Source: a virus (lineage: Duplodnaviria; Caudoviricetes). Taken from it: 39,617 nucleotides of DNA. Under the pieces are notes generated by a model that was given only the letters and a program-made list of their open reading frames with translations, ran no database searches and was not told the origin of the DNA. Location: positions 1 to 39,617 of IMG/VR virus record IMGVR_UViG_3300048848_000258. One strand, given 5' to 3'. A program made the translations under genes and the position numbers. Numbering within the stretch: the first letter of the stretch is position 1; every line of letters begins with the position of its first letter. Positions 810 to 29,836 of the stretch are shown in pieces.

Positions 810-823
810 TACCGTTCCTTTGC

Positions 824-5899: not shown

Positions 5900-5902
5900 G
5901 GA

Positions 5903-6954: not shown

Positions 6955-7604
6955 TTCTTCTGGATCACCTTGAAGCCGGCGCCCTCGGTGTGCAGCTTGC
7001 GAGCTGTTCCAGGGTTATGTGTGCCGGGGAAAATGGCGCATTTGCAGAAAGGCTTGGCAAGCCGGACGTCGAGGCCGCCGCTGATGCCGGACGGGATGTG
7101 CGGGAACACGCCCACCATTCCCGTCACGCCGGAACCAGACGCTGCGACCGTCTCCGAGACCTCGAAGAACCCCACACGCTGGGGGTTGCTCCCGTACAGG
7201 ATGGTGAGCTTGTCGCCGACCGTCAGGACATAGCCGGCTGGGAGCCCGGCAAAGGACATCGAGGCGCGGTCGGTGTCGATATTGAGCACCTTGACGCTGG
7301 CACTACCGAGTACGGCGCCTGCAGGGTCGGACTGCGGATAGAGCGAGAGCGGATCGCAAAGGTAAAAGCTCTCCTGCGTGCCGTGCAGCTTGCGGATCAT
7401 AGCCGCAATTTGCTTGGCGCGATTATTGGACAGCATGATCAGCTCGACCGTTCCGATCCAGAGCGGGCTGGACAGTTCGGCTTGCCAGAACCGGCCGTCA
7501 CCGCCAGCCGACGTCTCGTCGTTGCGCTGGATGTCCCAGATCACAGTCGAGATTGCCAGCTGATCGGCGAAGACGGCAAGGCTGTAGGGATATGCGACCG
7601 TCAT
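6951..7604 (-). CDS. Distal tail protein (Dit-like)
   Basis: Immediately downstream of the tape measure gene with ATGA overlap; 217 aa. Confidence 0.7.
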   Translation of the reverse strand: MTVAYPYSLAVFADQLAISTVIWDIQRNDETSAGGDGRFWQAELSSPLWIGTVELIMLSNNRAKQIAAMIRKLHGTQESFYLCDPLSLYPQSDPAGAVLGSASVKVLNIDTDRASMSFAGLPAGYVLTVGDKLTILYGSNPQRVGFFEVSETVAASGSGVTGMVGVFPHIPSGISGGLDVRLAKPFCKCAIFPGTHNPGTARKLHTEGAGFKVIQKK

Positions 7605-10600: not shown

Positions 10601-11686
10601 CAGCTGGGAGCCCTGCTGAAGACCGATCATGCCAGGACTCATCCCCCCAGCCGCAGTCACCGCAATGTCCTGAAACTGGAACATCGCATTGGTTGCCGCA
10701 TGGTTGGGCGCGTTGTCATTGACAGGGTTACGATCCAGGCTGGCGACATACTGCTCGTGACGAGCCCGCGCCATGGTTTGCGCCTGAGCGAGTTCTGTCG
10801 TGCTCAGCTCTGCACGATCCGCAAGCATGGCATATTCCGCCAGTTCGCTATTCAAGCGCGCCTGTGAGGCGCCAACCGGGTCAAGCTGGGCTCGCAGCGC
10901 CGTCGCCTTTTGCGCAAATCGCTCCGCTTCGCGTGCGGCCTCTTCGAACACAGCTGCAGAGCCGCGTGCCGAGGTGCCATTCCCGTTGACGCCAAGCCGA
11001 GAGTTCAGGTCGCTCGCAAACGCGCCGCCTGCCTGTGTCGCACGGAGACGTTCCATTTCTTCGCGCCGAGCAAGTTCTTCGGCAAAGACCGATGCCGAGT
11101 CCGAAGCGCGACCGCCAGCCGCAGTTCCCACGCCGAGCGTCCTGTTGATGCTGGCCTGCGCCTGCGATGCCGCCTGCTCTGCCGCTTGGGCTAGTCGAGC
11201 CTCTGCCGCCATGCGCTGGTACGACAGCGCAAGATCGTCGACCGCACCGCTTTGTGCCGTGATCCGGCCGTTGGCTTCGGAAATGGCTTGCGACAGTGCA
11301 GCATTGCCCTTGGCAACTGCATGAGACGCGTCGGCGGCAACGCCGTATTTGCGCGACAGGTTTTCGACCGCGACCGAGGCCTGCTCGGCGGACAGCCGCC
11401 CCTTGTCGAGGCCGTTACCAACCGTCTTCAGCCCTCGGTCGAAATCGGCCTGGGCAGCATAGCCGCTCACGAACTGTCGCTTGATGCGCTCGATACCGTC
11501 AGCGGCCGACGAGATCTTGGTGTTGGTTGCAACTGCCGTCGTGCCAACAGCGTCCATCGCCTGAGCAGCTTGGCGACCGGACTCGGACATTGCGCGATCG
11601 GCGGCAACCTTGCGAGCGGCGCCAGCGGCATAGCCGTTCGCGTCGAGGTCCGCAGAGACCCTCAATGTCCGAAGTTCGACAGCCAT
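7601..11686 (-). CDS. Tail tape measure protein with C-terminal M15-type peptidase domain
   Basis: 1361 aa, Ala/Gln/Arg-rich helical; FQFQDIAVTAAGGMSP..QQGSQL and lambda-type AGGGYTGPGG..PAGVVHKGE motifs; follows the chaperone genes. Confidence 0.93.
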   Translation of the reverse strand: MAVELRTLRVSADLDANGYAAGAARKVAADRAMSESGRQAAQAMDAVGTTAVATNTKISSAADGIERIKRQFVSGYAAQADFDRGLKTVGNGLDKGRLSAEQASVAVENLSRKYGVAADASHAVAKGNAALSQAISEANGRITAQSGAVDDLALSYQRMAAEARLAQAAEQAASQAQASINRTLGVGTAAGGRASDSASVFAEELARREEMERLRATQAGGAFASDLNSRLGVNGNGTSARGSAAVFEEAAREAERFAQKATALRAQLDPVGASQARLNSELAEYAMLADRAELSTTELAQAQTMARARHEQYVASLDRNPVNDNAPNHAATNAMFQFQDIAVTAAGGMSPGMIGLQQGSQLAGGFAGMGLKDAVTTTGAALAGLVSPLSLATIGLTAGAAAAIQFGIGLATSEEDTKKLDAVLQNHGNVLKALEERYGTLIEKARSFSMQGVNALNFQTGADIRSLRNSTKAAGEEFFGEVGTLTRGGYVAKSTYFGQDFAAFNDAITDLRNGVKAGKPDFEAFYDSLYKTAALKPEYAKQADEIAKLVAPLQAATQALTEMERAQRALQNAGSRSYGDAGAAFAADQSFRQLSMQRSADLEAAELRARTPAEHASVARQREENTYDPRESVATRTMRIQLAETQALTRAEHELKEAQSQRVRQYDADMAAMRAKSPADKEAAARAQAGVQIVDGEDAAARQSRIAMAGTQARVQAEYQLSEAQQERMRSLQDGIRQQELEVTVIGQTVGKTTELQSQYSLLSQLRTEAARNGITSETEFQRVFGQEIDLLNQAAAAHGRLAETRARAQLSNDLQFERDQLYRSSGDQQIASRQRGAGLSVDLSSEDALIMRQNMQLASLREGITGFFTDFREGLQQGDSIGEAFGNALLNGLMKVTNRITDSLIDSFVSSIIGKPGSGSTAGTGIFSLIGGAAAPAAAPAASAGAGIASAVASAANDNAARSAAGSALSFVGNYKSGVDAKLTDILNTAAQRFPGFKVDAMSGFRAGDPRFHGQGLATDVKLTDLSSGKMLGNYQDASSFRTYEQFAQTARSVQMEKYPELAQDLRWGGYFGGGKGKYGAVDTMHFDLGGKRAGMGGGSWEGGLNSSQRSLWPRANSEGMNSDTAAAAVERMAANSNEAATNLGGLTDATSGALKGVGDFGAGLGQFSQQLMNAASGANSPSSLLGGLGSLLGGIDPTSSFWAPNTTLGGFLMTGKAGGGYTGPGGINEPAGVVHKGEIVWSQMDIARAGGIGAVEGMRLGWQGYAGGGLVGGPATTPSRRSTIPNSLNDNTGSGAGDKVKVEVVTRMEQDGTLQTYVENISYQQGQRAAGEAVEDYDANIFDVINGHRQNPRKRKAVR

Positions 11687-11704
11687 GATTACCTCAAGAA
11701 GACG

Positions 11705-12091
11705 TCAGCTCGTCGGAGCCGTGATTTTCTGCTTTGCCTTCAGCGCTTCCGTCTCCAGATGGACACCATCCAGAACGGCGATGAAGCGCCGGAACTGCTC
11801 GAACTCGTCGAGCGTCAGCCCATGATCGCGCGCATACTGGCTCATCACCATGTACGAGATCGGGCTTTCGCCACCCATCGCGCCGTACTGCCGGTCGAAC
11901 CGGATGGCATCGAAGGCGCGAAAGTAAAACTCGTGCCAGGCGCGAGGCTCAAAGTCCTCGTCCCCGGCATCATCTTCGGCCGTCAGCCATCCCTCATCGG
12001 GAAAAGCCTCAGCAATCTCGTCGATCCACGATTGATGCTTCGCAGCCCCCGAACGCTCTAGGCGGTTTCGGAAGGCTGCTCGGAGTTTCCC
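11705..12091 (-). CDS. Tail assembly chaperone gpT-like segment, expressed by -1 frameshift
   Basis: Open -1 frame from the GGGAAAC slippery site to TGA at 11705-11707 (GKLRAAFRNRLERSG...WHEFYFRAFDAIRFDRQYGAMGGESPISY...TAPTS); absent from the ORF track. Confidence 0.85.
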   Translation of the reverse strand, partial: GKLRAAFRNRLERSGAAKHQSWIDEIAEAFPDEGWLTAEDDAGDEDFEPRAWHEFYFRAFDAIRFDRQYGAMGGESPISYMVMSQYARDHGLTLDEFEQFRRFIAVLDGVHLETEALKAKQKITAPTS

Positions 12092-12477
12092 GCTTCTTCC
12101 TCGTCGTACTCAACCTGGATCTCGCTCACGGCCGCTGCGCACCATTCGACAGCGGAGATGACATTCCGATATTCCGGGTTGGTCATGATGTCGGCCGCCG
12201 TCGTCTTTTCGTATTCGACATCGAGGCCGCGCCAGCCGTGCAGGAGATGCTCGTGGTAGAGCTTACCGAGTTCGACCAGCATCACGTTCGGCGGCACGGG
12301 CTTTTTCTTGTACTTCCGGCCGAGGCGCTGCATGAGCAGCTCGCGCTGCGTCCGGTACGCCGGCAGGTGGAGAGACGAGACGTTGAACTCCACACCCGGC
12401 CAGTCCGGGAACTCGATCCAGTCGCCTTTTTCCTCGCGGGTCAGGTCAGCCTTGAGGGATGCAAGCTTGACGGTCAT
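12058..12477 (-). CDS. Tail assembly chaperone gpG-like
   Basis: Between tail tube and tape measure genes; LLHGWRGL motif; slippery heptamer near the 3' end. Confidence 0.85.
   Translation of the reverse strand: MTVKLASLKADLTREEKGDWIEFPDWPGVEFNVSSLHLPAYRTQRELLMQRLGRKYKKKPVPPNVMLVELGKLYHEHLLHGWRGLDVEYEKTTAADIMTNPEYRNVISAVEWCAAAVSEIQVEYDEEEAGNSEQPSETA
12085..12091 (-). other. Programmed -1 ribosomal frameshift site G GGA AAC
   Basis: X XXY YYZ heptamer in the correct phase (GCG GGA AAC) followed by a 128-codon open -1 frame; canonical lambda G/GT arrangement. Confidence 0.85.
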
Positions 12478-12680
12478 TCGGAGACTTCCTCTTTGGGTTC
12501 ATGCAGCTGCGTACGCGGGGCGATCAGCCCCTTGTCTCGCATCAGCTGGGCGTAGGACTCGGGAACCGGCGCGCTTTCCACGCCAGCGGTAAATCGGACC
12601 TTCGTCTTTTCGTCAGGGTATCCGTCGAAGCTCTCGGACGGCGTGAAGGTGACCTGCTTTTCGTCCGGCTTCTTCGTCAT
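12474..12680 (-). CDS. Small hypothetical tail-region protein
   Basis: 68 aa, ATGA-coupled on both sides. Confidence 0.75.
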   Translation of the reverse strand: MTKKPDEKQVTFTPSESFDGYPDEKTKVRFTAGVESAPVPESYAQLMRDKGLIAPRTQLHEPKEEVSE

Positions 12681-13609
12681 GCGACGGCCCTCGTCAGCAC
12701 CATCGAAGCCGCCGAGGTCGGATCGAACTTGGCCTGGAAGGGCATTTCGATGATGACGGACTGGTTGTTGCCGCGAACCATCGGCCCGCCGCTCATGCCC
12801 TTCAACTTCGGGATGTTCAGCGTGTACTTGGCGCCGGTTGCCGCCCCGACCGTTAGCGCAAGCGACAGGTCGTCGTGGTTGAGGATCGCATTGTAGAGAT
12901 CGAGGTTCTCAAACAGCGCGGTGATCGAGCCAGTCACATCGAAGCGACCGAGGCCATGCGAATAGGTCTCATACTGCCCCAAGACTTCGTTCGCATAGAT
13001 GTTGTTGTTGATCCGGATCGAAGCGGCCTGAAGCTTAGGAGAGGCAGCAACACCGCCGAGCGTCAGCGTGCCAATATTGAGCGCCGCGTTCAGAACGGGC
13101 GTCGTGGATGCTGCAGCATAGGTCGCGCCGGCAATGATAGCCGTAGCCGGGACGGGCGAACCAAGCCCCATCACGCCGAAGTTGGCGGTGATGAACTGCT
13201 TGGCATTCAGCTGCAGATCGAGCGTGTTGATCCGGCAGCCGCGGTAGCGCGTGAACGCATCCGTTGCGCCCTGTTCGAACGTCTTCTCGAAGGCCAGCGT
13301 CTTTGGCGTGCGTCCGTTCTTCAGGACATCAGCCGCCCAGTCCGAGCAGAACAGCGCGGCCAGGAGGTCGTCATAGGTGCCATAGCTCAGCACGCCGTTG
13401 ATCGGGCCTGTGACCGACCGTCCGACATCGACGATATCGGACACGTTCCGGTCGTCGCGGATCTCGTCCGGGATGGCCGTCTGCTTTTCGAGCGTGATGC
13501 TTTCACTCGTGTAGCGCAGCGACTTCCACGAGGGCGTGGCGGGAATGACGCCAATGGCGGTTTCCACAAGATAGGCAAGCCGCGTCTGCGACCCTTCAGC
13601 AACGGTCAT
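12677..13609 (-). CDS. Major tail (tube) protein
   Basis: 310 aa, GGAGA RBS, beta-rich; position between tail terminator and chaperones. Confidence 0.88.
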   Translation of the reverse strand: MTVAEGSQTRLAYLVETAIGVIPATPSWKSLRYTSESITLEKQTAIPDEIRDDRNVSDIVDVGRSVTGPINGVLSYGTYDDLLAALFCSDWAADVLKNGRTPKTLAFEKTFEQGATDAFTRYRGCRINTLDLQLNAKQFITANFGVMGLGSPVPATAIIAGATYAAASTTPVLNAALNIGTLTLGGVAASPKLQAASIRINNNIYANEVLGQYETYSHGLGRFDVTGSITALFENLDLYNAILNHDDLSLALTVGAATGAKYTLNIPKLKGMSGGPMVRGNNQSVIIEMPFQAKFDPTSAASMVLTRAVA

Positions 13610-13639
13610 GGCTGTTCTCCAGGTTAAGGCCCGCAGGCG

Positions 13640-14053
13640 TTATGAGTGGGTGTAGTCCTGACGGTCCCACGTGATCGTGGTCGTCATGGCGAAGTAGCCG
13701 CCGAAAGTACGACCGGGGTCACCGGCGCCGATCGACATCTGGCGAGGGTGGAGGTCTCCAAGCGGACGCTCCCGGAAGAGCTTGGTCAGGCGCTCTGCGA
13801 TGCCCCGCGCATCCCGGCTTCCGGCGCTGTTGGGCGTCATCACATGCAGGTAGACAACACCCGACTCCAGCCACATGTTGTTGCCAGGAGCACCAACCGT
13901 CTGCTGTTCCAGTAGATCGCCGACCACCTCGATATACACGAATGGTGCCGGCACTTCCGGCGTGTCGAAACCGTCATTTTCCTCGGAGATCGGCGTCTCG
14001 GTCCATTCGACAAGACGGGCCATGATCAGGTTGTAGGCACTGAGACTGGACAT
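13640..14053 (-). CDS. Tail terminator-like protein
   Basis: 137 aa directly upstream of the tail tube gene; GVVYLHVMTP..G pattern. Confidence 0.75.
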   Translation of the reverse strand: MSSLSAYNLIMARLVEWTETPISEENDGFDTPEVPAPFVYIEVVGDLLEQQTVGAPGNNMWLESGVVYLHVMTPNSAGSRDARGIAERLTKLFRERPLGDLHPRQMSIGAGDPGRTFGGYFAMTTTITWDRQDYTHS

Positions 14054-14704
14054 TCAGAACACCATGTTCATGACGACAGAGGGATAGGTGATTGGCATGC
14101 CCTTTTGCCGATCCTTGCGGCCGCCCCCGCGCTTGAGGACGTATGGCATCTGCGGGTGCACGCCCGCGCGGATGTCGAGCCACTTCGTCTCGAACTGGAA
14201 GGCAGCCGGCGTATTGCGACCCTCGTTGCCGAACCGCCGTGCCGCGTCGCGTTTCGCGCCGTCGAAGATGGCATTGCGCTTGGTGCTCAACTGCCCCGTC
14301 TCCGCCTTGCGGACATACGGCTGGAAGTTCGTAATCACCACCTCGGCCCGGCCGCTGATCGTGTCGAAGTTCGTTACCGGGACTTGATCAGCCAAGACGA
14401 TGAACGATGCCCTGAAGCGTCCCGACCGAGCTGGTGCCCGTTGGCGAAGACGATCGAGCACGAAGGTGATCACTGGTTCCCAAAGCGCAAATTCGTAGAT
14501 GATCGGACCAGGCGCGACGACCTCATCCTCGGAGGATGCCGCACGACCGTTCACATAGAGATCATAGACCTTGCTGGCGCCTGCACTCTGGGCCTTCTGC
14601 AGCTCCTGCCGGGCAAAGACGGCCAGCGCCTTGTTGATCTGCTCGGGCTCAAGATCCACTGTTGCCAGCTGCAGTTCGCGGTCGAACGCATCGAAGCTAC
14701 TCAT
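14054..14704 (-). CDS. Neck / tail completion protein (HK97 gp10-like)
   Basis: APARSGRFRAS and ITNFQPYVRKAE motifs; synteny. Confidence 0.7.
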   Translation of the reverse strand: MSSFDAFDRELQLATVDLEPEQINKALAVFARQELQKAQSAGASKVYDLYVNGRAASSEDEVVAPGPIIYEFALWEPVITFVLDRLRQRAPARSGRFRASFIVLADQVPVTNFDTISGRAEVVITNFQPYVRKAETGQLSTKRNAIFDGAKRDAARRFGNEGRNTPAAFQFETKWLDIRAGVHPQMPYVLKRGGGRKDRQKGMPITYPSVVMNMVF

Positions 14705-15051
14705 TAGCCACGCACCAGGAGTGTGTAGCGCACGAGCGCATTTCGCTTCCGGATCGGCTTCGGGATCTCGATGTTGAGTTCCCGTCCGTCAACGACGACC
14801 TTGTCGCTCTTCTTCAGCGGGGCAAGGCCTTCCAGGCCGGAGGGGCTGACGATAACCACCAAATCGGTAAGCTTGATGTCGCCGACGAGCTCGTCGTTCT
14901 TCACCGGGCGGACGAAAGCGTTGACCGTGACCTCGTGAGCCTTCATCCGTGGCGAGACACTGCCATCGTAGCGATAAAGAGAAATGACTTCCCCGGTCAG
15001 TGCCAGCGCCTTGTCCAGCTCCGCGATAGCCTCCTCAGCCTTGAACATCAC
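14704..15051 (-). CDS. Head closure / head-tail adaptor protein
   Basis: 115 aa coupled ORF between connector and neck genes. Confidence 0.7.
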   Translation of the reverse strand: MMFKAEEAIAELDKALALTGEVISLYRYDGSVSPRMKAHEVTVNAFVRPVKNDELVGDIKLTDLVVIVSPSGLEGLAPLKKSDKVVVDGRELNIEIPKPIRKRNALVRYTLLVRG

Positions 15052-15701
15052 GGCCCCAACAGGTTGCGATATCGAATGAGCTGACCCGCCACGAAAGGCG
15101 GCACAGCGGCTTCACCGGAACGTCCGGGAATCGCCCCGACCCAATAATCGCGCTTTGTGCGCATCACGTCGGGAACATCGATCTCCTCGCTCTTCAACGA
15201 GGGATCGCGTTCGCGTTCCAGCCAGGCGAAGCGGAAGAAGTCGAACGCGGCCATCTTCAGGTCCGCTGGGACTTCTTCGAAGCCCGCCTTGTATGTGACG
15301 ACGATCTTTCCCGCCCCCCAAGACACGATCCGATCGTCGTACAGCCGGCGCACGATCCCGGCTTCCGGGTCAACATAATGGTCACCTCCCATCAGCACCG
15401 ATCCGCCGACATTCAGCGAGACGATCTCTACCTCGTGACGTCGCGCCAACAGGAGATCTTCACCGCGAATGCCACGGAACGTCTCTTCCAGGGTTTCCTG
15501 CAGAAGCGTCGGTGGAGAACCCGCTGCAACGGCGACATTGCATTCCGCGCAGATCGCCGCAGCGACACGCCGATCCATCGCCTCGAGCATCGAATCTTGA
15601 GAACTGTCCACAGAGCGCAGGCCGGCTGCAACGCGCCGTTCCTCCGGTGTCAGCAGCGGCAGATCTGCCGCTGGCGTGACGGTCCGCAGGACGCCCCGCA
15701 T
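15048..15701 (-). CDS. Head-tail connector protein (gp6-like)
   Basis: IVVTYKAGFEEVPADLKMAA motif; synteny after the capsid genes. Confidence 0.8.
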   Translation of the reverse strand: MRGVLRTVTPAADLPLLTPEERRVAAGLRSVDSSQDSMLEAMDRRVAAAICAECNVAVAAGSPPTLLQETLEETFRGIRGEDLLLARRHEVEIVSLNVGGSVLMGGDHYVDPEAGIVRRLYDDRIVSWGAGKIVVTYKAGFEEVPADLKMAAFDFFRFAWLERERDPSLKSEEIDVPDVMRTKRDYWVGAIPGRSGEAAVPPFVAGQLIRYRNLLGP

Positions 15702-16240
15702 CAGGCCTGCGCCTCGGATGCCTGAAGCGCAGCCTGGCTAGCAGCCTGGAGTGCGGCAATGACGTCGTCTTTGGTGCGCGCGCCAGACGCGTCGACGCCG
15801 CGGTCGGCCGCAAGAGCTTCGAGCTCCTTGCGCGTCAGTTTCTCGAAATCGATCGGCGGAGTAGATCCGACTTCGGTTTCGACTTCGGCCTCAGCTTCGG
15901 CCTCGACATCAGGAGTGGCAGTCGTGCTCTGCGACGCAATGAGATCGGTAGCAAAGGACCTGGCAGCCGGAAGGTTCGGAAGGCAACCCCCGTTGAGGAT
16001 AACGCCTCCATCGTCGACGACATCAAAGCCGCCGCCAAGAGAGGGAACCGCACGCAACCCACGCGGCATCTCTTCCGGGGACGGATGCCGGAACTCTTCG
16101 ACCGCAAGGAGGCCGGCCTCTGCGATCTCCTCGTCCGTGACCGGGGCGCAGGTGCCCATGGCAAGGCTCGACGTCGCGGCGACATACGGGAGGGTGATGA
16201 TATTGCCGGCTTCGCGGCCGATCAGTTGGCGAACGAACAT
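15701..16240 (-). CDS. Hypothetical head-region protein with C-terminal HeH/Rho-N-like domain
   Basis: C-terminal LTRKELEALAADRGVDASGARTKDDVIAAL; acidic linker; GAAGGA RBS. Confidence 0.7.
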   Translation of the reverse strand: MFVRQLIGREAGNIITLPYVAATSSLAMGTCAPVTDEEIAEAGLLAVEEFRHPSPEEMPRGLRAVPSLGGGFDVVDDGGVILNGGCLPNLPAARSFATDLIASQSTTATPDVEAEAEAEVETEVGSTPPIDFEKLTRKELEALAADRGVDASGARTKDDVIAALQAASQAALQASEAQA

Positions 16241-16295
16241 GGGAGATCCTTCTGCTGGAGCAAGGCACCGCCGACGAGCGGCGGAGCTTCAGCAA

Positions 16296-16781
16296 TCAGT
16301 TGATGATGGCGGAGGGCGGCGTGGCCTGCTGGTATCGAAGATCCACCAGGATGAAGTCTGCCTGCGTGATGTTCGCGGCATTCGAGGCGCCCGTGGTCAG
16401 GTAGATGCAGTCGAAACCATTGGCGAGGTCGAGCTGTGCGGGGTCGATCTCGAAGATGACCTGCTTGTTCTTCACCGCCGCATCCGTGACGTAGCTCACC
16501 GCATCGCTGCGCCGGATCAGCGTATCGGTCAGCGAGGTATCGAGGTTCGCCCAGATCGGCACGGCATTGGCGATGGGCTTGGCGCCGGTCCCGGCGACAT
16601 CTGTCGCCTGCATGATGGCAAGGGCGACCGTTGCGGCATTGCCCTGTGCGAGATGGACTTTCACGTACGCCTTGCCGGCGTTCTTGAGGCTGACGATATC
16701 CGAAGAGCGGCCGGCGGCATCGGCGGCAGGTGGCAGGGCTTCAACCAGCTTCATCTGCTGGGGAAATGTGAACTTGGTCAT
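16296..16781 (-). CDS. Putative capsid decoration/accessory protein
   Basis: 161 aa beta-rich ORF immediately after the major capsid gene; AGGAG RBS. Confidence 0.65.
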   Translation of the reverse strand: MTKFTFPQQMKLVEALPPAADAAGRSSDIVSLKNAGKAYVKVHLAQGNAATVALAIMQATDVAGTGAKPIANAVPIWANLDTSLTDTLIRRSDAVSYVTDAAVKNKQVIFEIDPAQLDLANGFDCIYLTTGASNAANITQADFILVDLRYQQATPPSAIIN

Positions 16782-16812
16782 TCCGTTGATCTCCTGTGTG
16801 AATCTGATGAGG

Positions 16813-16838
16813 CAAAGGCCGGGGCCGAAGCCCCGGCT
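16813..16838 (-). terminator. GC-rich UUCG hairpin downstream of the capsid gene (weak terminator or mRNA stabiliser)
   Basis: GCCGGGGC-TTCG-GCCCCGGC followed by CTTT on the minus strand; U-tract is short. Confidence 0.55.
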
Positions 16839-16850
16839 CGGTTCAGCTCG

Positions 16851-18185
16851 TTACGCGCGGGTTTCGAGCGTGATGAACGGGCTCTGCGTGGCCGTGCCCT
16901 TGTAGGGCGTCATCGGGTTGGACCAGATGGGCTGGCCGTTGAACCGGTAGACGAAGCGGAAGCACGTCTCGTCGTAGATGAAGCGGACATGGATCGACGA
17001 CGCGAACTGCGTCGGGCCCTTGTCGATCGCCAGATACTGCGACAGGTCGACCAGCATGATGTCGCCAGCCGTGCCGAGCGTTGCGGCATACTCGACGGGG
17101 ATGATCGGCCGGCCCATCAGAGTTGCATACTGGCTGCCGTTGGCGCCGGGCGGCGTGAACATGATGGCAGGCGCTGCGATGCCGCCGACATTCTCGGTAC
17201 CGGCTGCGTTCTTGACCTTGATCACGAACTGGTAGAGCTGCGGCTCGACGTCCTGGTTGATGACCCAGACCGCAGTCTTGCGCGACCGCGCGGGCATCCG
17301 CGCCCACATCTTGAGAATGTTTTCCGCTACGATGGTGCCACCCAACTGATTGGCTTCCTTCGGAACGGTGATCATCGAGCCACCATTGAGGAACCCGAGC
17401 GGCATGCCGGCGCCGGTACCGTTGATGATCGCATCTTCGATCTTGAACAGGAATTCGTCAGCGAAGGCCTGGCGCAGCCAGGATTCAAGCGCGGTCGAAT
17501 CCTGCAGAAGTTCGTCGGTCGCGTAGCAAAGACCGGTGAGCTTATCGAGCTCCATCTTGATGCGACGGAACTTCGGCGTGCTGTCGCGCTTCAGGCCAGC
17601 TTCGGCCGTCCAGAAAGACTGGATGCCGCCCCAACGGGAACCGTTCGCCCGGCTCGTTTCGTCGACGCCGTTCATATGGATGCCGTTGGAGTTCGGGCCG
17701 ATAGGAATGCGGCGCACGCGACTGGCGATCTCGCCACCCTCGTAGGTGTTCTGCAGAAGCTCGTTGGAGAAATCCGTCTGCACGAGGAAGCCACCGTCAG
17801 CGGCCACGCCTTCCGACATGCCGGTCGGGCCAGCAAAGATCAGCCGGGGATCGGCACTGCCGCGACGATCGGGGTTGGCAGCGCCGGCGATCGCCAGCAT
17901 CTGCTCGCCGAGCGAGGAGAAACGAGCGCCTTCGCGGCCCTGCGCATTGTTGCGGTCGGCGTTTTCGTTCGGGTCGATCACGCTACCGACCGAGCGCTGG
18001 CGCTCCATCTGACGTTCGGCGCGAACGATCTGATCGTCGAGCGCCGTCAGCTCGGCAGAGATCGCGTCATCGCGAGCAGCTTCCTGATCGGTCAGGCCGC
18101 GGTGTTCGGAGGCGGCCAGATCGAAAGCGCTCTGCGCTTCCTTGACCAGATCGGCACGCTTCTGGCGAAGAACCTTGATTGTCAT
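16851..18185 (-). CDS. Major capsid protein, HK97 family
   Basis: N-terminal coiled-coil delta domain, DGGFLVQTDF, INGTGAGMPLG and TLMGRPII motifs; GGAG spacing favours ATG 18185 over 18191. Confidence 0.96.
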   Translation of the reverse strand: MTIKVLRQKRADLVKEAQSAFDLAASEHRGLTDQEAARDDAISAELTALDDQIVRAERQMERQRSVGSVIDPNENADRNNAQGREGARFSSLGEQMLAIAGAANPDRRGSADPRLIFAGPTGMSEGVAADGGFLVQTDFSNELLQNTYEGGEIASRVRRIPIGPNSNGIHMNGVDETSRANGSRWGGIQSFWTAEAGLKRDSTPKFRRIKMELDKLTGLCYATDELLQDSTALESWLRQAFADEFLFKIEDAIINGTGAGMPLGFLNGGSMITVPKEANQLGGTIVAENILKMWARMPARSRKTAVWVINQDVEPQLYQFVIKVKNAAGTENVGGIAAPAIMFTPPGANGSQYATLMGRPIIPVEYAATLGTAGDIMLVDLSQYLAIDKGPTQFASSIHVRFIYDETCFRFVYRFNGQPIWSNPMTPYKGTATQSPFITLETRA

Positions 18186-18313
18186 GTACATGCTCCGTTG
18201 ATGAGAGAACCGGGTGAATGGGGCGCAGGAAGTCAGCCCACTGTCCCGGCGGTCGTGGGGCGCTGAAGAGATGTCGGTGGGATGCGGCCTATCGTGTCAG
18301 TGACCGCGCGTGA

Positions 18314-19447
18314 TCAGCCGTTGCGCGACCGATGAGCGTGGCGCCGGCGCCGGAAGGCATCACGGTCGCTTTCCGTGGCGCACAGCGCAGAAGCTTCGAG
18401 CGGATTGCCGCTCTCCTGCGGCTCCGATGGAACGTCAACAGGAGGCGAAGGTGGTGCTTCCTGTTCGGTAGCATCGGCGGTCGCATGCAGGATGGTGTCA
18501 TGATCTGCGCGAGGTCCGGATGTCGTCTTCATGGAGGCAACACGGCGCAGCGTCTCGTCCAGGGTGGCAACCCGATCAGCCATGCCGAGCTTCACCGCGA
18601 CTTTGTCTTTCTCGACGCGTCCTTCCCCGAAGCCGCCGACAACATCGCTGACCTTGACGCCACGACCACGGGCAACGTCCGTCGTGAAGTCGCGGTAGTA
18701 GTCGTCGATCTGCGCCTGCAGCGCCTGCGTCGCCTCGTCCGTCAGGGGTTCGTACTGGTTGCCTTCGACCTTGTACTTGCCAGCCGAGACGAACGTGAAC
18801 TTCACGCCTTGCGCTTCCGCTGCCTTCGAGACGTCACGGTGCAAACCATAAACACCAATCGAGCCGACCTGACCGCCGGGTGTCACCACGATCTCGTCGC
18901 AGGCCGATGCGATCCAATACGCCGCCGACGCGGCCAAGCTGTCGACCTGCGCAATGATCGGCTTCTGGCCGCGCGCCTTGAAGATGTCGTTTGCCAGAAC
19001 CTGCACGCCGTGGACGTTTCCGCCCGGACTGTTGAAACGCAGCACGATGGCCTTCACGGATGCATCGCCAATTGCATTGCGGAAGCTCCGCATCACGCGT
19101 TCGGTAGACGTCCCGCCTGGTCCGCTGATGTCGTCGACCTCAGACGCATGCTGTGCGATGATGCCGAACACAGAGATGACCGCGATTACGGATGCCACGG
19201 GCGCCGGCGAACCGCCCTCACCGCGACCGACAACACCGAGCGGATCCAGCGTAGCCGCACTGAAGAGTGCCGCGACACCGTTCGGCTCGCGCTCGCCCTT
19301 GAGTGCTGCGATCTCACTGGCCGATAGGCGAATGCCCTCGGCACGCCGCTCGACGACTTCCGCGATGGCTTGAAGCCGGTCGGGCGTGATCGCCCAAGGG
19401 TGCTGGACGATGGCTGCATGCAGGTGAGGAAATCTAATTGTCATCAT
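18314..19447 (-). CDS. Prohead protease, S49 (SppA-like) family
   Basis: NSPGG, AASAAYWIAS (catalytic Ser), GSIGV and AGKYK motifs; between portal and capsid. Confidence 0.93.
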   Translation of the reverse strand: MMTIRFPHLHAAIVQHPWAITPDRLQAIAEVVERRAEGIRLSASEIAALKGEREPNGVAALFSAATLDPLGVVGRGEGGSPAPVASVIAVISVFGIIAQHASEVDDISGPGGTSTERVMRSFRNAIGDASVKAIVLRFNSPGGNVHGVQVLANDIFKARGQKPIIAQVDSLAASAAYWIASACDEIVVTPGGQVGSIGVYGLHRDVSKAAEAQGVKFTFVSAGKYKVEGNQYEPLTDEATQALQAQIDDYYRDFTTDVARGRGVKVSDVVGGFGEGRVEKDKVAVKLGMADRVATLDETLRRVASMKTTSGPRADHDTILHATADATEQEAPPSPPVDVPSEPQESGNPLEASALCATESDRDAFRRRRHAHRSRNG

Positions 19448-20747
19448 CAGGCTCCGGAACGGTGTCAGAGATCGAAGGGCCGCCGTTGTGACCGATCAAG
19501 GCGCTGGTCGTGTCGTCGGACCGGTGGTTCGGCATGTTGTCGGGCGTGGTCGTGTTCGTGGGCACGAGGGGCTCATCGAGACCGTCGAGCGGATTGTAGC
19601 CAAGCGCCTCGCGGGCCTCGTTGCGCGTGAGGATCCCGTTGAGAACGAGCCGTGAGAAGAAGTCGGCCTGCGCCTTGGAATCGCCCGCAATCAACGGCTC
19701 CACATCGAAGGCGGCCTCGTAGATGTTCGGCGCGAGAATGAGGTCGCGACGGATTGCCCCGGTCCAGCAGCTCAGCCACGGCATCAGGTTGTTGCGCACG
19801 AAAGCCAGCATGATGGCCTCGACACCGGTGCCCCACGAGCTGGTCTTGGTCATGTGGTGCAACAGGACGAGCGGCACATCGAACCAGCGCGCAATTTCCT
19901 CGATCTGGAATTCCCGCGTTTGCAGAAACTGCGCTTCCTCGGAATCAAGGCTGATACTTTCGAACTTCGCGCCCTGTTCGAGGATAGGCGTCTTGCTGGC
20001 ATTGCCGAGGCCGGAGAAGTTAGCATTCCACTGTGACTTGAAGCGCTCGAACGCAGCGTCGCTCATCTGCTTTTCGACAGTCACGACACCGGATGGCCGA
20101 GCCCCGTTCGAAAACAATCGCGCACCGTGCTCTTCAGCCGCAAGTGCCAGACCGATGGTTTCGCGAGCGTAGGCGACCGGGCTTACGCCGACGAGGCCAC
20201 CGGGCGCCATGTGCGATCGCAGATGCAGAACCTCGTCCTGTAGCAAGATCCGGTTGCCCTTGATGGGGTCCGCGATCAGATATCGAATGCTCTGGTCGCC
20301 CAGACGCTCGACATGCACGCGATCCGGATGGATGGGCTCAAGGCTGTTGGCAAACCCGCGCGGTCCGGAGACGATCTCGGAGTAGGCATTCCCCCTCAGC
20401 GCCAGATGCCCCATCATCATTGCCTTGAAGTCCCACGCCGACTGCCAGTGGTTCGGCTGGTATTCCAGAAGGTCGTTCAGGGGATGTGATGGTGCCTCGG
20501 AACGCTTCTTCGTCACGGGATCGCGCTGATACATCCGCAGCGGAAGCGTCGCGACCGTCTTTGACAGAAGGCCGATGCACGCGTAGGCGGCCGACACCCG
20601 CATCGCGCCGTCTTCCGTGACGCGGCGACCGGACAGGCTCATGCTGGACACACCGCCCCCGTCGTACCAGCGATCATCGTCGGCCGGCGGCACCTTGCTG
20701 TCCTTCGAGGCGCGCACGCCGCCAAGCATTGCCGAGAACAAACCCAT
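19434..20747 (-). CDS. Portal protein, HK97 family
   Basis: LALRGNAY, EVLHLR, GVSP, FSNGARPSG, QFLQTR..EEIARWF and ILTRNEAR motifs. Confidence 0.96.
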   Translation of the reverse strand: MGLFSAMLGGVRASKDSKVPPADDDRWYDGGGVSSMSLSGRRVTEDGAMRVSAAYACIGLLSKTVATLPLRMYQRDPVTKKRSEAPSHPLNDLLEYQPNHWQSAWDFKAMMMGHLALRGNAYSEIVSGPRGFANSLEPIHPDRVHVERLGDQSIRYLIADPIKGNRILLQDEVLHLRSHMAPGGLVGVSPVAYARETIGLALAAEEHGARLFSNGARPSGVVTVEKQMSDAAFERFKSQWNANFSGLGNASKTPILEQGAKFESISLDSEEAQFLQTREFQIEEIARWFDVPLVLLHHMTKTSSWGTGVEAIMLAFVRNNLMPWLSCWTGAIRRDLILAPNIYEAAFDVEPLIAGDSKAQADFFSRLVLNGILTRNEAREALGYNPLDGLDEPLVPTNTTTPDNMPNHRSDDTTSALIGHNGGPSISDTVPEPDDDN

Positions 20748-20749
20748 GC

Positions 20750-20944
20750 TCAGCGTCCGCCGCGCACAGTGCCGAGAACGGCCAGGCCGACGAGAATGCC
20801 GCCGGCGACCATGAAGCCCGCCGGCGGGTAGTGCAGCCAGGCGCCGTAGCCGGACAGTGCCGCGCCACAGATGCCGATGATCTCGCGGCCGGTCTGCCCA
20901 TCGATCTTGATCGACGACGATACGGCCTTGGTGTCTTCTGTCAT
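20750..20944 (-). CDS. Small membrane protein between terminase and portal
   Basis: 64 aa with two hydrophobic segments; TGATG coupling to terL. Confidence 0.7.
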
Positions 20945-22680
20945 CAGGCTACCCTCAATCCACGTTCTTCATAGACGGACCGACCGGCCGCCTCGGGGTT
21001 GGTAATCATGACCGTGACCGCGTCGAACAACGCCATGGCAGGGTCGATCTTGGCGTCGCCGGCGTTCTGCTTGGTGGCGCGGATCGCAGTCGCGGTCGGC
21101 TCGATCTTGATGTTGCCGATGCACCAATCCATCATCCGGCTGGCCGAGTGGACAAAGGTGCCATTCGCGAGCTTTCGCTCGGTAGTCTTGATGGCGTTCA
21201 TCAGCTTGTAGCCCTGCCCGACACCCTCGATCTGGCCGCCTTCCGGCGTAATCCCAATCTTGGCGAGCTCCTCAACGAACTCGCCGTAAGGGCCTTCGTT
21301 ATCGATGGCGACGCAGGCGAGCAGCCCGGCTTCGTTGATCTCTGCGATGATTTCGATGATCTCACTGACGTCCTTCAGCTCGTCGTCGACAATAGTGAGA
21401 TCACCGTCCGCCTTGAAGTCCAGCAGGGTCGAGGCAATCGACTGGCGCCGATCGAGTACACCCTCGTGACACCATGCCCGCGACACGCTGAGCCAGCGCC
21501 TCGTTTCCTTCTCGCGTCCAAGGGCTGCAAACCCGAACAGGTCGTCCAGCCCACCGCCATCGATCCCGACGACGATGACTTCCGAGCGCTCCATCAGCGT
21601 TTTCATCGTGAGCGTCGTGTCGATCCGCCGGTCCCAGAACTCCGCCCCCGGCCACGCATCGGTCTTGATGCCGATACCGATCTCGATGTTGAGATGCTGG
21701 CTTGCCCAGATGCGGATGTCGCGCTCGCCTTTGACGCGCTCGCCTTCCCAGTCCAGCACCAGGCTATGAAGTCGCATTGACCGACCGAGGTTCGGCATGA
21801 CCATCCCCCAGTTCTCGGGGTCCTGCCACTTGAACGGGTCGGTGGCGATATCGTCCGGGAACTCGTAGAGGATGGGCAGCATTGCCCGGATCAGTTTGCC
21901 CCGGTAGTCGCCATTGCGGATCTTGCGCGCCGTGATCAGCTCGTCACGGAAGACGCCAGCCGGCGGCGCATCGCTCTGCGTCGTGATGATGATCAGCAGG
22001 CCTTCGGCATTCTTCTCGAGGCCGCCGCGGATCTGGCGCATCACCTGCGCCGCATGCGGGTTGCGTCCGAGCAGATGAAGCTCGTCGAGCAGGACCACGA
22101 CAGGCATCGAGCCTGTGAGGATGTCCAGCGCGAAGGTCTTCACTTTCATCATTGAGCCGTTCAGAAGATCTTCGATCCTCTTCTCGTGCCAGACGATGTG
22201 AAAGCGGCCGGACCGACCAGGCCCGCCGTAGAGCTCCGGTGCAGCCTGGATCATGCCCGCCGCCTGCAGAAAGGCCCGGTCAGAGACGGACTGTGTCGGC
22301 CCGATGAACAGCATCTCGGCATTGTGCCGGCGGTTCATCAGCATGGCGACGATGATCAGCCCGCCACTGTACGTCGTCTTCGATTGACCTTTCGGGACGA
22401 GCGCAAAGATCTCGCGGATCATGCGGACGTGCTCGGCCGGATCGTAGCAACCGAAGGCGGCGCGCACGATGCCGCGAAACCAGGGGCCGCAAGCATCGCG
22501 CATCTTCGGCTGGCCGATCACATCCGGCAGTCGGAGCTCGTCGAAGATCTCAACGGCGAGGTCGGCCTCTTCCTCAAACAGCGGGAGATCCGGGATCAGC
22601 GATTGGCCGTTGCGGATACGGTCCTCCCAGTCGACGCAACTCAAATCCCATCCCACGGGCTGGCGAACATGCGCGGTCAT
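20944..22680 (-). CDS. terL: Terminase large subunit
   Basis: Walker A-like VPKGQSKTT, Walker [14 protein letters not shown] coupling motif, nuclease GIDGG and KIDPAMA. Confidence 0.96.
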
Positions 22681-22681
22681 G

Positions 22682-23173
22682 TCAGTTCAACTTGTCGCTG
22701 TCGGTGGTCCGCATCGCCATCAGGCGACCGAGCGGCGTCGCGGTATCTGGCGTGCGCGCATCCTGCAGGGCCTGCTCTTTCTTGCCTAACTTCACCGGCT
22801 TCTTCGGCTGGCTCTGCTCGGCAACCCGGCGGGCGAAATCGCTGTCGGCGATCGCCGCCTTGTCGATCTTCTTGCCCAGTTCCTTGATCGCCGCGACGTT
22901 GCCCGCTTCGACTTCCTCGTAGAGACGCAGGAGCACAGTGCCTTCAAGCTGAAAGCGCGCCGTCTGCCGACAAGCCAGCTCACGAAAATAATGTTTGCGC
23001 AAAGTCGGCTCTGTGATGCCGAGAGCTGCGGCAATCTCGGCTTCCTTCCGGCCCATCGCCAGCAACAGTCTGACTTTGCAACGCTTTTTATCATCGACCA
23101 GATGAGGGGGACGTCCCCGCTTTCCCCAGCCTTCGGGAACCTCATCACCAAAGAGGTCAAAAACTGCTGGCAT
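22682..23173 (-). CDS. terS: Terminase small subunit
   Basis: HTH (EIAAALGITEPTLRKHY), GRPP and GNVAA motifs; directly upstream of terL; start uncertain. Confidence 0.8.
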   Translation of the reverse strand: MPAVFDLFGDEVPEGWGKRGRPPHLVDDKKRCKVRLLLAMGRKEAEIAAALGITEPTLRKHYFRELACRQTARFQLEGTVLLRLYEEVEAGNVAAIKELGKKIDKAAIADSDFARRVAEQSQPKKPVKLGKKEQALQDARTPDTATPLGRLMAMRTTDSDKLN

Positions 23174-23273
23174 AGAAAAAAACCTCTCGCTCGCACCCAA
23201 GCGGTTGGGGCCCTTGGACCCTGTGGACTTTCAACCCCCTACCCCCTCCGGCGCTCCTGCCACCGGCCAGACG

Positions 23274-23590
23274 TCACGCCCGGTCGGCCGGTCCCGTCAT
23301 CGCTTTGATGCCGTGCATCAGCCTCTCGACCTCGGCACTGACGTCTGGTCGGGCGTGACTGACGAAGCTTTCGTGAAGAATGACCCTGCCGCGACGGCCG
23401 ATCAGCTTGGTGGTGGATGACCGCCTCAGGATGCCGACGACCTTGCACCTGCGCGCAGGTGTCGAACCGCACCGCTCACTGATGCCTTGGCCAACCAACG
23501 AGCAATCTCATTGCTGGCCGTTACAATGACGACATCTCCATCCGGCAGGGCATCGATGAAAGCCTTGGCTCGATCCATCTGCTCACCCAT
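23274..23590 (-). pseudogene. Hypothetical gene apparently split by a 1-nt frameshift near 23487
   Basis: ATG 23590 is coupled to the HNH stop; MGEQMDRAKAF...EIARWLAK would join GISERCG...GPADRA of the 23274-23498 ORF if one base were restored. Confidence 0.5.
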
Positions 23591-23907
23591 CAGAACCGCT
23601 CCGCCATCCGCTTGGCTCGCTGCGCCAAGGTCTTGGTCGTGTGGCACGAGCCACAGAGAAGCTTGATGTTCGAGGGATCGAGCAGTGGCCCGCCATCCTT
23701 CACCTCAACGATGTGGTCGCCGAAGATGCGCGTATTGACCCGGCCGCAACCCATCTCCTCGCATCGCCGACCGCGCTCAGCGATCAGACGGTTCATAAAC
23801 GTCCGCCATTCCGGAGACAGATAGAAGGCGTCGGCCGTCTTTGGCTTCGGCTTGACGGCCCGCGCATCGATCTGGCGAATGGAAGGCTTGATGGAACGAA
23901 GACGCAT
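23590..23907 (-). CDS. HNH endonuclease (terminase-associated, HK97 gp74-like)
   Basis: FYLSPEWR, CxxxxC, DHIVEVKDGG, N and LCGSCH motifs; upstream of terS. Confidence 0.9.
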   Translation of the reverse strand: MRLRSIKPSIRQIDARAVKPKPKTADAFYLSPEWRTFMNRLIAERGRRCEEMGCGRVNTRIFGDHIVEVKDGGPLLDPSNIKLLCGSCHTTKTLAQRAKRMAERF

Positions 23908-23914
23908 ACTTCTA

Positions 23915-23943
23915 GAACAGAAAAGGCGACCTCTCGGCCGCCT
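23915..23943 (-). terminator. Intrinsic terminator in front of the late operon (tR'-like)
   Basis: AGGCGGCC-GAGA-GGTCGCCT stem-loop followed by TTTCTGTTCT, a few nt before the HNH start codon. Confidence 0.75.
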
Positions 23944-24098
23944 CGTAGTCTGATCATAGCTTTCGCACTGGCCCTGAATCGGTGCCTCGGTTGAGGCTGT
24001 CAGGGCAGGGTCCGACCGGCGTACCGACCCCAGACTTCCGTCCCGCATGCTACTGCGTTCTCGGGGGCTCACTTCAGGATCATCGGATAATCCGTGAC
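23915..24098 (-). ncRNA. Putative structured late-leader RNA (candidate antitermination element)
   Basis: 200-bp intergenic gap packed with hairpins read by eye: GCCCTGA/TCAGGGC enclosing GCCTC/GAGGC, GGGTC/GACCC, GAC-GGAA-GTC, CGCA/TGCG, CGGA/TCCG. Confidence 0.5.
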
Positions 24099-24100
24099 GA

Positions 24101-24130
24101 TTGATACTCACACTTTCTCGACTTGCGCAA
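24101..24130 (-). promoter_or_regulatory. Putative late promoter (pR'-like)
   Basis: TTGCGC-N18-TATCAA overlapping the stop codon of the NusG-like gene. Confidence 0.4.
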
Positions 24131-24788
24131 CATCCAAATCGATCGGGGTCTTTCGTCCAAAGATCTCGATTTCCACTACGACCCTGTTAGCCGCAGCATC
24201 AAACGACGTCACCAAACCGAGAAAAGAGACGAACGGGCCGTCTATGATTTTTGCCTGCTCACCCAATGCGTAATAGATGGGTGATGGCGGCCTAAAGTCA
24301 TAGGCTCCGCTTTTAGCCTTCTCGATGAATTGGTTGATGAATTTTGGGCTGACACGATGGAAGACAACGCCATTTCCAAGCACGCCGGTGACCCTTTTTT
24401 CCCGGTCGAAACGAAGGACGCCTTGCACCGCCTCGTTGCTTGGAACGCACCTGACGAGCACATAACCAGGCAGAACTGGAAGGATGGGAGCAGGTATAAT
24501 CCGATGCCGACGCTTGATCTGTTCACCCTTCCGGCGAGGGATAAGAGCATGAACATTCTGCGATGTGAGTGCCTCTTCCACAGCAAATTCACACCGGGCG
24601 CGCACGCTGAAGCAGAGCCAAGCGGCCAATTCCGGATAATCATCAGCGATTCGCCGGCTAGCCATTCCGAGCTGCGAGATCCTGATTCGGTTCTCACGCC
24701 GCGCTTTCTCCTGCTTGAACTCGGCATAAGGCCGGATATCGATTGCCCGCGCCTGCTCAAACTCACCCGTTCTATGCCGCATGTTCAT
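24108..24788 (-). CDS. nusG: NusG-family transcription antiterminator (NGN + KOW), phage paralog
   Basis: NGN motifs PVLPGYVLV and VTGVLG; KOW motif GEQAKIIDGPFVSFLGLV and C-terminal VEIEIFGRKTPIDLDVAQVEKV; start at ATG 24788 with GGAG RBS. Confidence 0.9.
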   Translation of the reverse strand: MNMRHRTGEFEQARAIDIRPYAEFKQEKARRENRIRISQLGMASRRIADDYPELAAWLCFSVRARCEFAVEEALTSQNVHALIPRRKGEQIKRRHRIIPAPILPVLPGYVLVRCVPSNEAVQGVLRFDREKRVTGVLGNGVVFHRVSPKFINQFIEKAKSGAYDFRPPSPIYYALGEQAKIIDGPFVSFLGLVTSFDAAANRVVVEIEIFGRKTPIDLDVAQVEKV

Positions 24789-26091
24789 CGCCTCGCTCCA
24801 CCCTTGCTGCCAAAGCAGCTGCCTTGAATGCATCCAGACCGCTTGGCCCACCCTTCGGGAACCAGACAACCTTCATCGTTCCGGGATCGGGTACGAAGGG
24901 CTTACTGTTGGTCTCGTGCCAAGCCTTCCAATGCCTCCACATGTCCGAGCCAACCTCAACAGGTTCACAGATCTCGCTGAACACCGCCGCCCATGCGTCA
25001 GCCTCTTCGGACTGCCTGTCGGCGGCCAAACGGTTCAGTCTATTCGCTTCGGGGTAGCCGATATCGAGAGCCCGCCGCTTGCCTTCGGCTTCCTCGAAGT
25101 CATCAGGGAACACGAGGTCATTGCCAGCCAATGCAATGCCCTTGCGTTCAAGATAGGCCAGCGCGCGGCTCTCGCTCGAACGGCGATGGGCGTCGAACGT
25201 CGTCCTGATCGTCTCACGCAGGTTCTCAGGGAGATCCACCGACGTGGGCGAACGGAGGAGCGGCAGCATGCGCAGCCCTGCCCACAGAGGCCCAAACGGC
25301 GCGACCTTGACCGGTTCCGCAGCCTGAGCCCTGCGCACCGCATTCGGAGCAATCGCCTGAAGATCGTTGAAGAGCTTGTCCCGGAGGTAGACACCGAGCA
25401 CGACAGCGTCAGGCTCACCCTTGCGCTCGCCGTTCTTGATCCGAGGGCACAGAGCCAGATAGGCGTCTCGCCTCTCCTCGGCCATCTCTCGTTCTTCTGG
25501 CGTCAAGGCAAGGAACTGCCTGAAGCTCCAATCCTTCGATTGCTTCAACACAGCTGGCCACGGGTTTCCATGCTTGCCGATCCGCAGAGCGTCATGCCGC
25601 TTTTCGAGATCCTTCAAATCTTCTTTCGATCCGTCTCGCGCACGCCCTCTCTCATTTACTGGTTCTCTTACTGGTTCCCTTACAGGGTTACTGTCCAGAT
25701 TCTGGACACGGCTTTTGCCATTTTCTGGACACGGCTCAGGCTGATTTCTGGACACGGCTTCGTCGGACCCGTGTCCAGTTTCTGGACCCGGCTTCAGCGC
25801 ATTTTGTCGCTCGAAACCCGGCTCGAACGGAAAGCGATACCGGGTCGATTCCTGCCTGCGCGTACCCTTGCTGCGGCGCTGCTCGCGCGCGATCAGCCCG
25901 GCCGCTTCGAGGTCGTTCAGGTGCACGTTCAGCGTGGAGCGCGGCAGCTCGCAATCGTCCGCAAGCGTGTCCTGGCTTGGAAAGCAGCCATGATCAGGAT
26001 GATACCTGTCGCACAGGTGCCAGAGGACGATCTTTGCCGCAGGCTTCAGCCCACGCTGCTTGATCGCCCAGTTGGTTGCGTCAAAGCTCAT
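24772..26091 (-). CDS. Phage replication initiator (N-terminal winged HTH, lambda O-like position)
   Basis: AKIVLWHLCD..CFPSQDTLADDCELPRSTL..LEAAGLI HTH; internal iteron cluster; ATGA coupling at 26091. Confidence 0.85.
   Translation of the reverse strand: MSFDATNWAIKQRGLKPAAKIVLWHLCDRYHPDHGCFPSQDTLADDCELPRSTLNVHLNDLEAAGLIAREQRRSKGTRRQESTRYRFPFEPGFERQNALKPGPETGHGSDEAVSRNQPEPCPENGKSRVQNLDSNPVREPVREPVNERGRARDGSKEDLKDLEKRHDALRIGKHGNPWPAVLKQSKDWSFRQFLALTPEEREMAEERRDAYLALCPRIKNGERKGEPDAVVLGVYLRDKLFNDLQAIAPNAVRRAQAAEPVKVAPFGPLWAGLRMLPLLRSPTSVDLPENLRETIRTTFDAHRRSSESRALAYLERKGIALAGNDLVFPDDFEEAEGKRRALDIGYPEANRLNRLAADRQSEEADAWAAVFSEICEPVEVGSDMWRHWKAWHETNSKPFVPDPGTMKVVWFPKGGPSGLDAFKAAALAARVERGDEHAA
25657..25793. 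repeat. Iteron cluster, putative replication origin
   Basis: TTCTGGACACGGCT at 25700, 25723 and 25746, TTCTGGACCCGGCT at 25780, plus three 12-bp TTACTGGTTCYC-like repeats at 25657-25692. Confidence 0.8.
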
Positions 26092-29834: not shown

Positions 29835-29836
29835 CG

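Follow-up and report, generated by a model that had tools for sequence, protein, structure and literature searches.

The DNA analysed here, called the window, comprises the 39.6-kb virus record IMGVR_UViG_3300048848_000258 in full and represents a temperate rhizobial siphophage. Its genes include those for an integrase, methylases, a replication initiator and regulators resembling CI, Cro and CII, and a late operon on the minus strand proceeds from HNH and terminase genes to the tail genes. Named relatives of the phage are phages and prophages of Rhizobium, Neorhizobium, Agrobacterium and Sinorhizobium. Also present are a DNA polymerase III beta clamp homolog (33212-34546, plus strand), a PAPS-reductase-domain gene (35811-36584, plus strand) and two DNA methyltransferases (26088-29891, minus strand). 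The features at and around the junction of the early and late genes are:

24772..26091, minus strand: replication initiator with an HTH domain (PF13730; phrog_270)
24108..24788, minus strand: phage NusG paralog of 226 aa, with an N-terminal helical extension, an NGN domain and a beta-type KOW domain (PF02357, PHROG 6386, AlphaFold)
24101..24130, minus strand: predicted late promoter, -35 TTGCGC, 18-nt spacer and weak -10 TATCAA, identified by codon constraint; start predicted at about 24094-24095
24008..24093, minus strand: RNA domain 1, comprising a GGAYGA junction (24093-24088), helix P1 (24087-24083 with 24015-24011), a variable branched insert with hairpins at 24057-24044 and 24042-24033, and a CCC junction (24010-24008); covariation, 42 sequences
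23971..24006, minus strand: RNA domain 2, comprising helix P2 (24006-24000 with 23977-23971), an internal loop and a nested hairpin (23997-23984); compensatory changes
23955..23970, minus strand: tail with a 2-bp GC-N4-GC mini-hairpin (23966-23959) and an invariant TG (23956-23955); 42-sequence alignment
23917..23944, minus strand: predicted intrinsic terminator, 9-bp stem and U-tract, at which a leader RNA some 180 nt long would end
23590..23907, minus strand: HNH endonuclease, the first late gene (PF01844; phrog_589)
126..23200, minus strand: late operon with probable terS, terL, portal, protease, capsid and tail genes (Pfam/PHROG matches)

The 3' end of the initiator gene overlaps the start of nusG, which makes nusG the last early gene, placed after the replication initiator and before HNH, terS and terL, as an earlier note on this DNA had described it. 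The same overlap is found in annotated phages, and six isolated phages share the order of replication initiator, overlapping nusG, short gap and late genes. Many distant NusG paralogs also precede terminase genes. The probable terS gene of the window was assigned by its position, its PHROG (phrog_12540) being one of unassigned function. The earlier note had recognized no homolog of lambda Q, and our searches agree: there was no Q-family match among the 45 ORFs compared with Pfam or the 59 compared with PHROGs, nor did these ORFs match any other late activator family. Terminators are not in excess within the late operon.

The product of the ORF at 24108-24788 is, as had been proposed, a complete protein with NGN and KOW domains. 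It matches PF02357 above the cutoff (E 6.5e-11) and the PHROG 6386 family ("transcription antiterminator"), and its AlphaFold model (pLDDT 82) shows, besides the NGN domain and a KOW domain that is all beta, an extra N-terminal helix at residues 20-42; it thus has both of the domains that define the NusG/Spt5 superfamily. A profile match to E. coli NusG (4e-27), a Foldseek match of the model to NusG (E 2.8e-13), best solved-structure matches to housekeeping NusG, and retention of the housekeeping-like GPF and IFGR motifs in the KOW domain place it near the housekeeping protein. Its scores lie below the cutoffs of the four family models examined, those for housekeeping NusG (TIGR00922, 73 vs 135.7 bits), RfaH (TIGR01955, 26 vs 144.5 bits), UpxY (NF033644, 32 vs 100 bits) and LoaP (NF033641, 41 vs 125 bits). 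The secE-nusG-rplK context of the housekeeping gene is absent, the paralog being found in a phage rep-nusG-HNH context. The alpha-helical autoinhibitory CTD characteristic of RfaH is not seen in the model, which has a beta CTD, a single predicted state that is still compatible with fold switching. Two details of the earlier description need revision. The N-terminal extension, given as basic and about 55 aa in length, is present and extends about 48 aa beyond E. coli NusG, but it is only mildly basic, with 12 K/R vs 9 D/E in residues 1-55. The Arg-rich loop of the NGN domain is not a special feature, since it aligns with the ordinary beta-hairpin of NusG. Naming of this protein family as an antiterminator is not new, as it exists in both GenBank and PHROG 6386. 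Members of the family at the same position are annotated as "transcription antiterminator" in phi2LM21, phi3LM21, PPF1, Rivra, Nsp-JY10 and MseS-P1; these names were given by homology, and the leader element is annotated in none of the six records.

A promoter overlapping the end of nusG had also been suggested. TTGCGC (24130-24125) lies within the last nusG codons and TATCAA is at 24106-24101, so that the pair straddles the stop codon as stated, but a strict sigma70 scan did not call a promoter at 24130-24101. Codon usage argues for the -35 element. Among 112 unique loci, all 103 Val/Ile/Leu codons at the position of the -35 TTG end in T, vs 24% (877/3672) of such codons elsewhere in the same nusG genes. 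The residue encoded there varies (Leu 68, Ile 24, Val 11), and the uniform third base despite this variation indicates a constraint on the -35 at the level of DNA. The GG of the conserved core follows the nusG stop by 14-16 nt in 99 of the 112 loci. Promoters of Alphaproteobacteria often lack the -7T, according to the portion of PMC7703639 available to us.

Past the nusG stop, the order of conserved parts is GGAYGA, P1, a variable insert, P1', CCC, P2, tail and terminator. In 42 aligned sequences the named structure is 93.4% paired, a level reached by 0 of 500 shuffles and not approached by slid controls (at most 54%); both sides have changed at 16 of its 25 pairs, although kinship among the sequences inflates such counts. 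P1 is a long-range helix that is 98% paired in these sequences, shows compensatory changes at all five of its pairs, and holds four of the top five MI-APC pairs in a plain MAFFT alignment of them. P2 is 89-90% paired, again with compensatory changes, and domain 2 folded alone gives a z of -4.7. Covariation gave no signal for a pseudoknot, or for an enclosing helix joining the 5' flank and the tail. The clade of NusG paralogs to which the window belongs has 99 members (FastTree support modest, 0.79); 14 of their leaders were unparsed and 7 were dropped as mis-parsed, leaving 78 for counts of spacing and folding. P1 pairing in all 78 is built into the parser and has no evidential weight. The insert within P1 ranges from 14 to 87 nt across loci. 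P1 is rarely the minimum-energy fold, with a median probability of 0.03 over the 78 loci and a penalty of 5.5 kcal/mol in the window, and it would thus need tertiary contacts or a bound protein.

Structural conservation among homologs is therefore borne out by P1 and P2, with a fold that differs from the one first drawn. All six stems named in the earlier note do fold alone. Two of them, 24084-24094 and 24008-24030, belong to the computed minimum of the window and are alternatives specific to it; we rejected them as conserved structure, since they use up the arms of P1 and have z values of only -1.0 and -0.9. That description did not include what is most conserved, namely the two junctions (GGAYGA and CCC) and the 3' tail at 23970-23955. 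The comparison with Rfam proposed there yielded no family matching the leader: the Rfam 15 covariance models, among them such put, EAR and JUMPstart-type motifs as the collection contains, gave three chance matches, with a best E of 0.2 and none within the leader. The Rhizobiales-1 and -2 alignments of PMC2864571 appear by eye to be unrelated to it. The window contains no second copy of the element, the best other match having an E of 0.45.

In alignment A2 of the same 42 sequences, the GC, GC and TG of the tail are invariant and no indel follows P2. The final AT stands 14-16 nt from P2 in 77 of the 78 parsed loci, whichever subtype of the element they carry. RNA polymerase holds about 15 nt of RNA, which matches this spacing; with polymerase paused at the TG, the mini-hairpin would fall within the non-template strand and P2 would have just emerged from the exit channel. 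We therefore regard the tail, from its sequence and position, as a candidate ops-like loading or pause site in non-template DNA. The 2-bp stem is invariant and hence without covariation. Its loop is variable, with 10 different tetraloops in 68 loci, and the second subtype carries a looser RATGG-N5-AT tail in place of the mini-hairpin; for both reasons the ops-like reading is weaker than the RNA structure. The ops hairpin itself (GCGGTAGC) does not occur in the leader, where the GC..GC stem is kept but GGTA is found in none of the 10 loop types of the 68 loci. The window has a GCG..AGC stem that resembles the opsX-type leader-pause hairpin YGCGNAGCR, with a loop one base longer, and polymerase may pause there. 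The earlier note had offered a folded RNA or an ops-like element as the loading signal, and the locus appears to have the two side by side. The last bases of the tail form an NTG, and a start-stop mini-ORF may exist in homologs: an in-frame stop lies no more than 6 codons past the NTG in 34 of 67 loci, vs 18 and 11 in the other frames. The NTG frame of the window (23957-23793, minus strand) is open for 54 aa.

The terminator just ahead of the late operon (23944-23917) holds up as described and is widely shared, being found within 70 nt downstream of the element in 72 of 80 loci vs 14 of 741 control windows. In 60 folded leaders, the terminator formed with p>0.9 in 52, and abolishing it raises the energy by 10.6 kcal/mol or more in every one of the 60. 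On these grounds we rejected a riboswitch- or attenuator-type mechanism in which another hairpin acts as antiterminator, since read-through cannot come from a hairpin switch when the terminator is so strongly favoured. Loci of the second subtype have a terminator in only 1 of 10 cases. Where it is missing, the leader runs directly into late genes or a tRNA. At one such locus (L030:3771-3847) a tRNA-Met gene stands directly past the element in the place of the terminator, and the same was seen by eye at L389 and L377. Lambdoid phages likewise carry tRNAs after Q.

The element was found in all 46 of the close loci that were collected by way of the protein (L007-L017 and L019-L053, some of which represent one contig in two collections), and all six isolated phages carry it. 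A scan of viral contigs that used DNA only recovered 119 loci of an estimated 230 or so; 80 had long flanks and were counted, and 39 with short flanks were left out. The stop codon of a NusG paralog lies 88-150 nt upstream of the element in 79 of these 80 loci, and in the exceptional one the element is 232 nt from the contig end. In the host family, represented by 401 genomes, there were 19 matches to the pattern, 18 of them 91-146 nt past a NusG-paralog stop. We considered host targets regulated in trans and rejected them: the sole match without nusG (1 of 19 in the 401 genomes) also lacks the core, and a reversed control pattern matched once. Wherever the upstream DNA sufficed, neither the viral scan nor the 401 genomes contained a full element without the paralog, and no element was seen behind another regulator in either scan. 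The strict co-occurrence with a phage NusG that had been predicted is thus observed among viral and genomic loci alike (79 of 80 and 18 of 19), but gene and element are adjacent, so that co-occurrence is in part plain linkage. The FastTree tree shows shared ancestry and not co-evolution. A class-wide search with model R1 matched only the seed genome among 151 genomes; given the excessive specificity of the model and the small number of candidates scored, this single match does not show absence elsewhere. RNA contigs assembled from eight public runs, for relatives of one further locus (L164), span the leader and its flanks or nothing, and yield no transcript start, end or level.

A sister clade of NusG paralogs (19 loci) lacks P1 and P2. 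In 15 of the 19, tandem CCAC repeats are found instead (shuffle rate 22/1075), usually followed by a tail similar to that of the window and a terminator. These loci (L266, L267, L271, L273, L277, L285, L308, L310, L312-L316, L083 and L057) have 2-5 repeats and a TGC..GC tail in the first 120 nt past the nusG stop, and appear to represent a second cis element. Several members of the sister clade have a longer NGN hairpin. Among more distant paralogs, several of which carry strongly basic arms at the N terminus, inspection by eye shows a promoter of TTGAC type or a 5' spacer, together with a divergent GGAY..P1..CCC..P2..TG core (L078, L081, L082, L094, L096, L087, L340 and L350), and the RNA family may therefore extend beyond what model R1 detects. 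Large AT-rich viral contigs (L070, L071, L077, L090, L286, L294, L295, L360, L367 and L372) encode housekeeping-like NusG proteins that have neither extension nor leader and appear to be a separate acquisition. Gp34 of phiLM21 (L377:1710-2480) is NGN-like but distant, has no KOW match and is not a close relative of the paralog; the phiLM21 leader and L369 share another motif, GGACC..CAAC..GGGAATACTCG. It is gp34 that is named as the conserved antiterminator of phiLM21-like prophages in the accessible part of PMC12429752.

The layout of the locus resembles several known systems. In phage lambda, Q is the last early gene, the promoter pR' lies at its end, and a leader of about 180-190 nt and the terminator tR' precede the late operon. 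The same succession of regulator, promoter, short leader, terminator and late operon is described for the Q21-like BrrG/GafZ of gene transfer agents, in the portion of bioRxiv 10.1101/2024.11.20.624540 that was available. The window differs from lambda in having no Q-family protein and in placing the conserved signal in the transcribed leader and not in promoter DNA, and resembles it in that a tRNA sometimes lies downstream of the element. LoaP of Bacillus velezensis is a NusG paralog that works with the dfn/mln leader hairpin and a leader terminator (PMC12691694, in part). As with LoaP, the paralog is encoded beside its target operon and the leader contains an RNA element and an intrinsic terminator; unlike LoaP, the operon is a phage late operon in Alphaproteobacteria, and a two-domain RNA of 100-160 nt replaces the UNCG hairpin, no conserved example of which occurs in alignment A2. 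RfaH at ops (GCGGTAGC, E. coli) and UpxY at opsX (YGCGNAGCR, Bacteroides) use non-template DNA hairpins of the same stem kind, as given in the available text of PMC11685472. What the window has in common with them is a NusG paralog and a GC..GC mini-hairpin of 2-3 bp in the leader, 3' of an RNA stem. It differs in its variable loop, in a CTD predicted to be a constitutive beta KOW near that of housekeeping NusG, and in the large covarying RNA upstream. Like HK022 put, EAR and conAn (PMC8191782, seen in part), the locus places a structured leader RNA near the promoter and ahead of a long operon, but this RNA has no Rfam match and is always paired with a NusG-family gene. We infer from these comparisons that the window encodes an antiterminator of the LoaP/RfaH type in the position of lambda Q, one that falls outside those families by their defining tests. 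The literature that we searched contains no phage NusG late system and not this RNA; subscription papers were thinly covered, and catalogues of structured RNAs may list the motif. PMC5537653 has no text on the leader element or antitermination, and PMC12429752 no leader element, in the parts of each that were available. The element is real and conserved, and as a cis element it appears to be undescribed.

Taken together, the paralog, the promoter-like site, the covarying leader, the ops-like tail and the terminator probably constitute a system of processive antitermination, analogous to that of Q, acting at a bipartite RNA and DNA site. Transcription by host RNA polymerase would begin at the promoter that spans the nusG stop codon and would normally end some 180 nt later. 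The paralog, as the product of the last early gene, would be loaded when polymerase pauses at the tail; at that point the GC-N4-GC hairpin would lie exposed on non-template DNA, and P1 and P2 would just have left the exit channel as RNA. The paralog would then take the place of host NusG and enable polymerase to pass the terminator and transcribe the 23-kb virion operon. The weak -10 box, the position of P1 off the minimum-energy fold and the presence of a terminator in only 1 of 10 loci of the second subtype are points against reading the locus as a late switch.

Three other explanations were considered. The RNA itself might be the antiterminator, binding polymerase in the manner of put, EAR or conAn2, with the paralog serving only as a processivity or anti-Rho factor or being recruited through nothing but the DNA tail. 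The pair of neighbouring stems near the promoter, with their invariant junctions, would fit such an RNA, conAn combines a bipartite RNA with protein where put and EAR act alone (PMC8191782, in part), and the sister clade dispenses with the folded RNA. An element that needs no factor and stands immediately before its own terminator would, however, provide no timing switch, and the full element never occurs without the paralog where upstream DNA sufficed; we consider this explanation unlikely. It is more improbable that the 180-nt transcript serves as a phage small RNA in its own right, or as an element in the 3' UTR that controls nusG mRNA, with the paralog acting on early transcription or on the host and the late genes being switched by other means. 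A predicted promoter and terminator of its own and an ornate, variable insert would suit a small RNA, as would a terminator that is dispensable in one subtype, and a second late promoter was sought by a strict scan only. Yet no other late activator family is present in the window, the ops-like tail keeps a fixed distance, leaders that lack the terminator run directly into late genes or tRNA, and in none of the 401 genomes did the element turn up away from nusG.

In the explanation that we judge least probable, the paralog acts mainly by way of translation: its housekeeping-like KOW would recruit ribosomes, either to the NTG of the tail or to the start of the late genes, and termination would be suppressed by coupling. 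The KOW domain of NusG contacts ribosomal protein S10, and the GPF and IFGR motifs of the paralog are consistent with such a role, the invariant TG is always within an NTG, the early in-frame stop is enriched (34 of 67 vs 18 and 11), and in some terminator-less loci the ATG of the tail appears by eye to open the first late gene. Conversely, there is no conserved peptide and no Shine-Dalgarno sequence before the NTG, half of the loci have no early stop, and the TG also fits a pause consensus.

Antitermination by the paralog at the bipartite site remains the reading that we prefer. It is a more tentative proposal, which we put at somewhat less than even, that these loci represent a widespread and undescribed class of late antiterminators, in which a NusG derived from the housekeeping protein takes the place of Q and is loaded by a two-domain RNA and an ops-like DNA hairpin one polymerase footprint downstream. 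If so, the class would unite the loading modes of LoaP and RfaH, and different protein clades would be paired with different 5' elements. Little has been characterized of how temperate phages of rhizobia and related Alphaproteobacteria control their late genes, and antitermination of this kind would add a phage branch to the RfaH/LoaP/UpxY family, as well as a new RNA motif. One gene and 210 bp, carried by isolated phages of laboratory hosts, would make a compact test bed for two questions: how a NusG paralog selects the operon on which it acts, and whether signals in RNA and in non-template DNA may act jointly.
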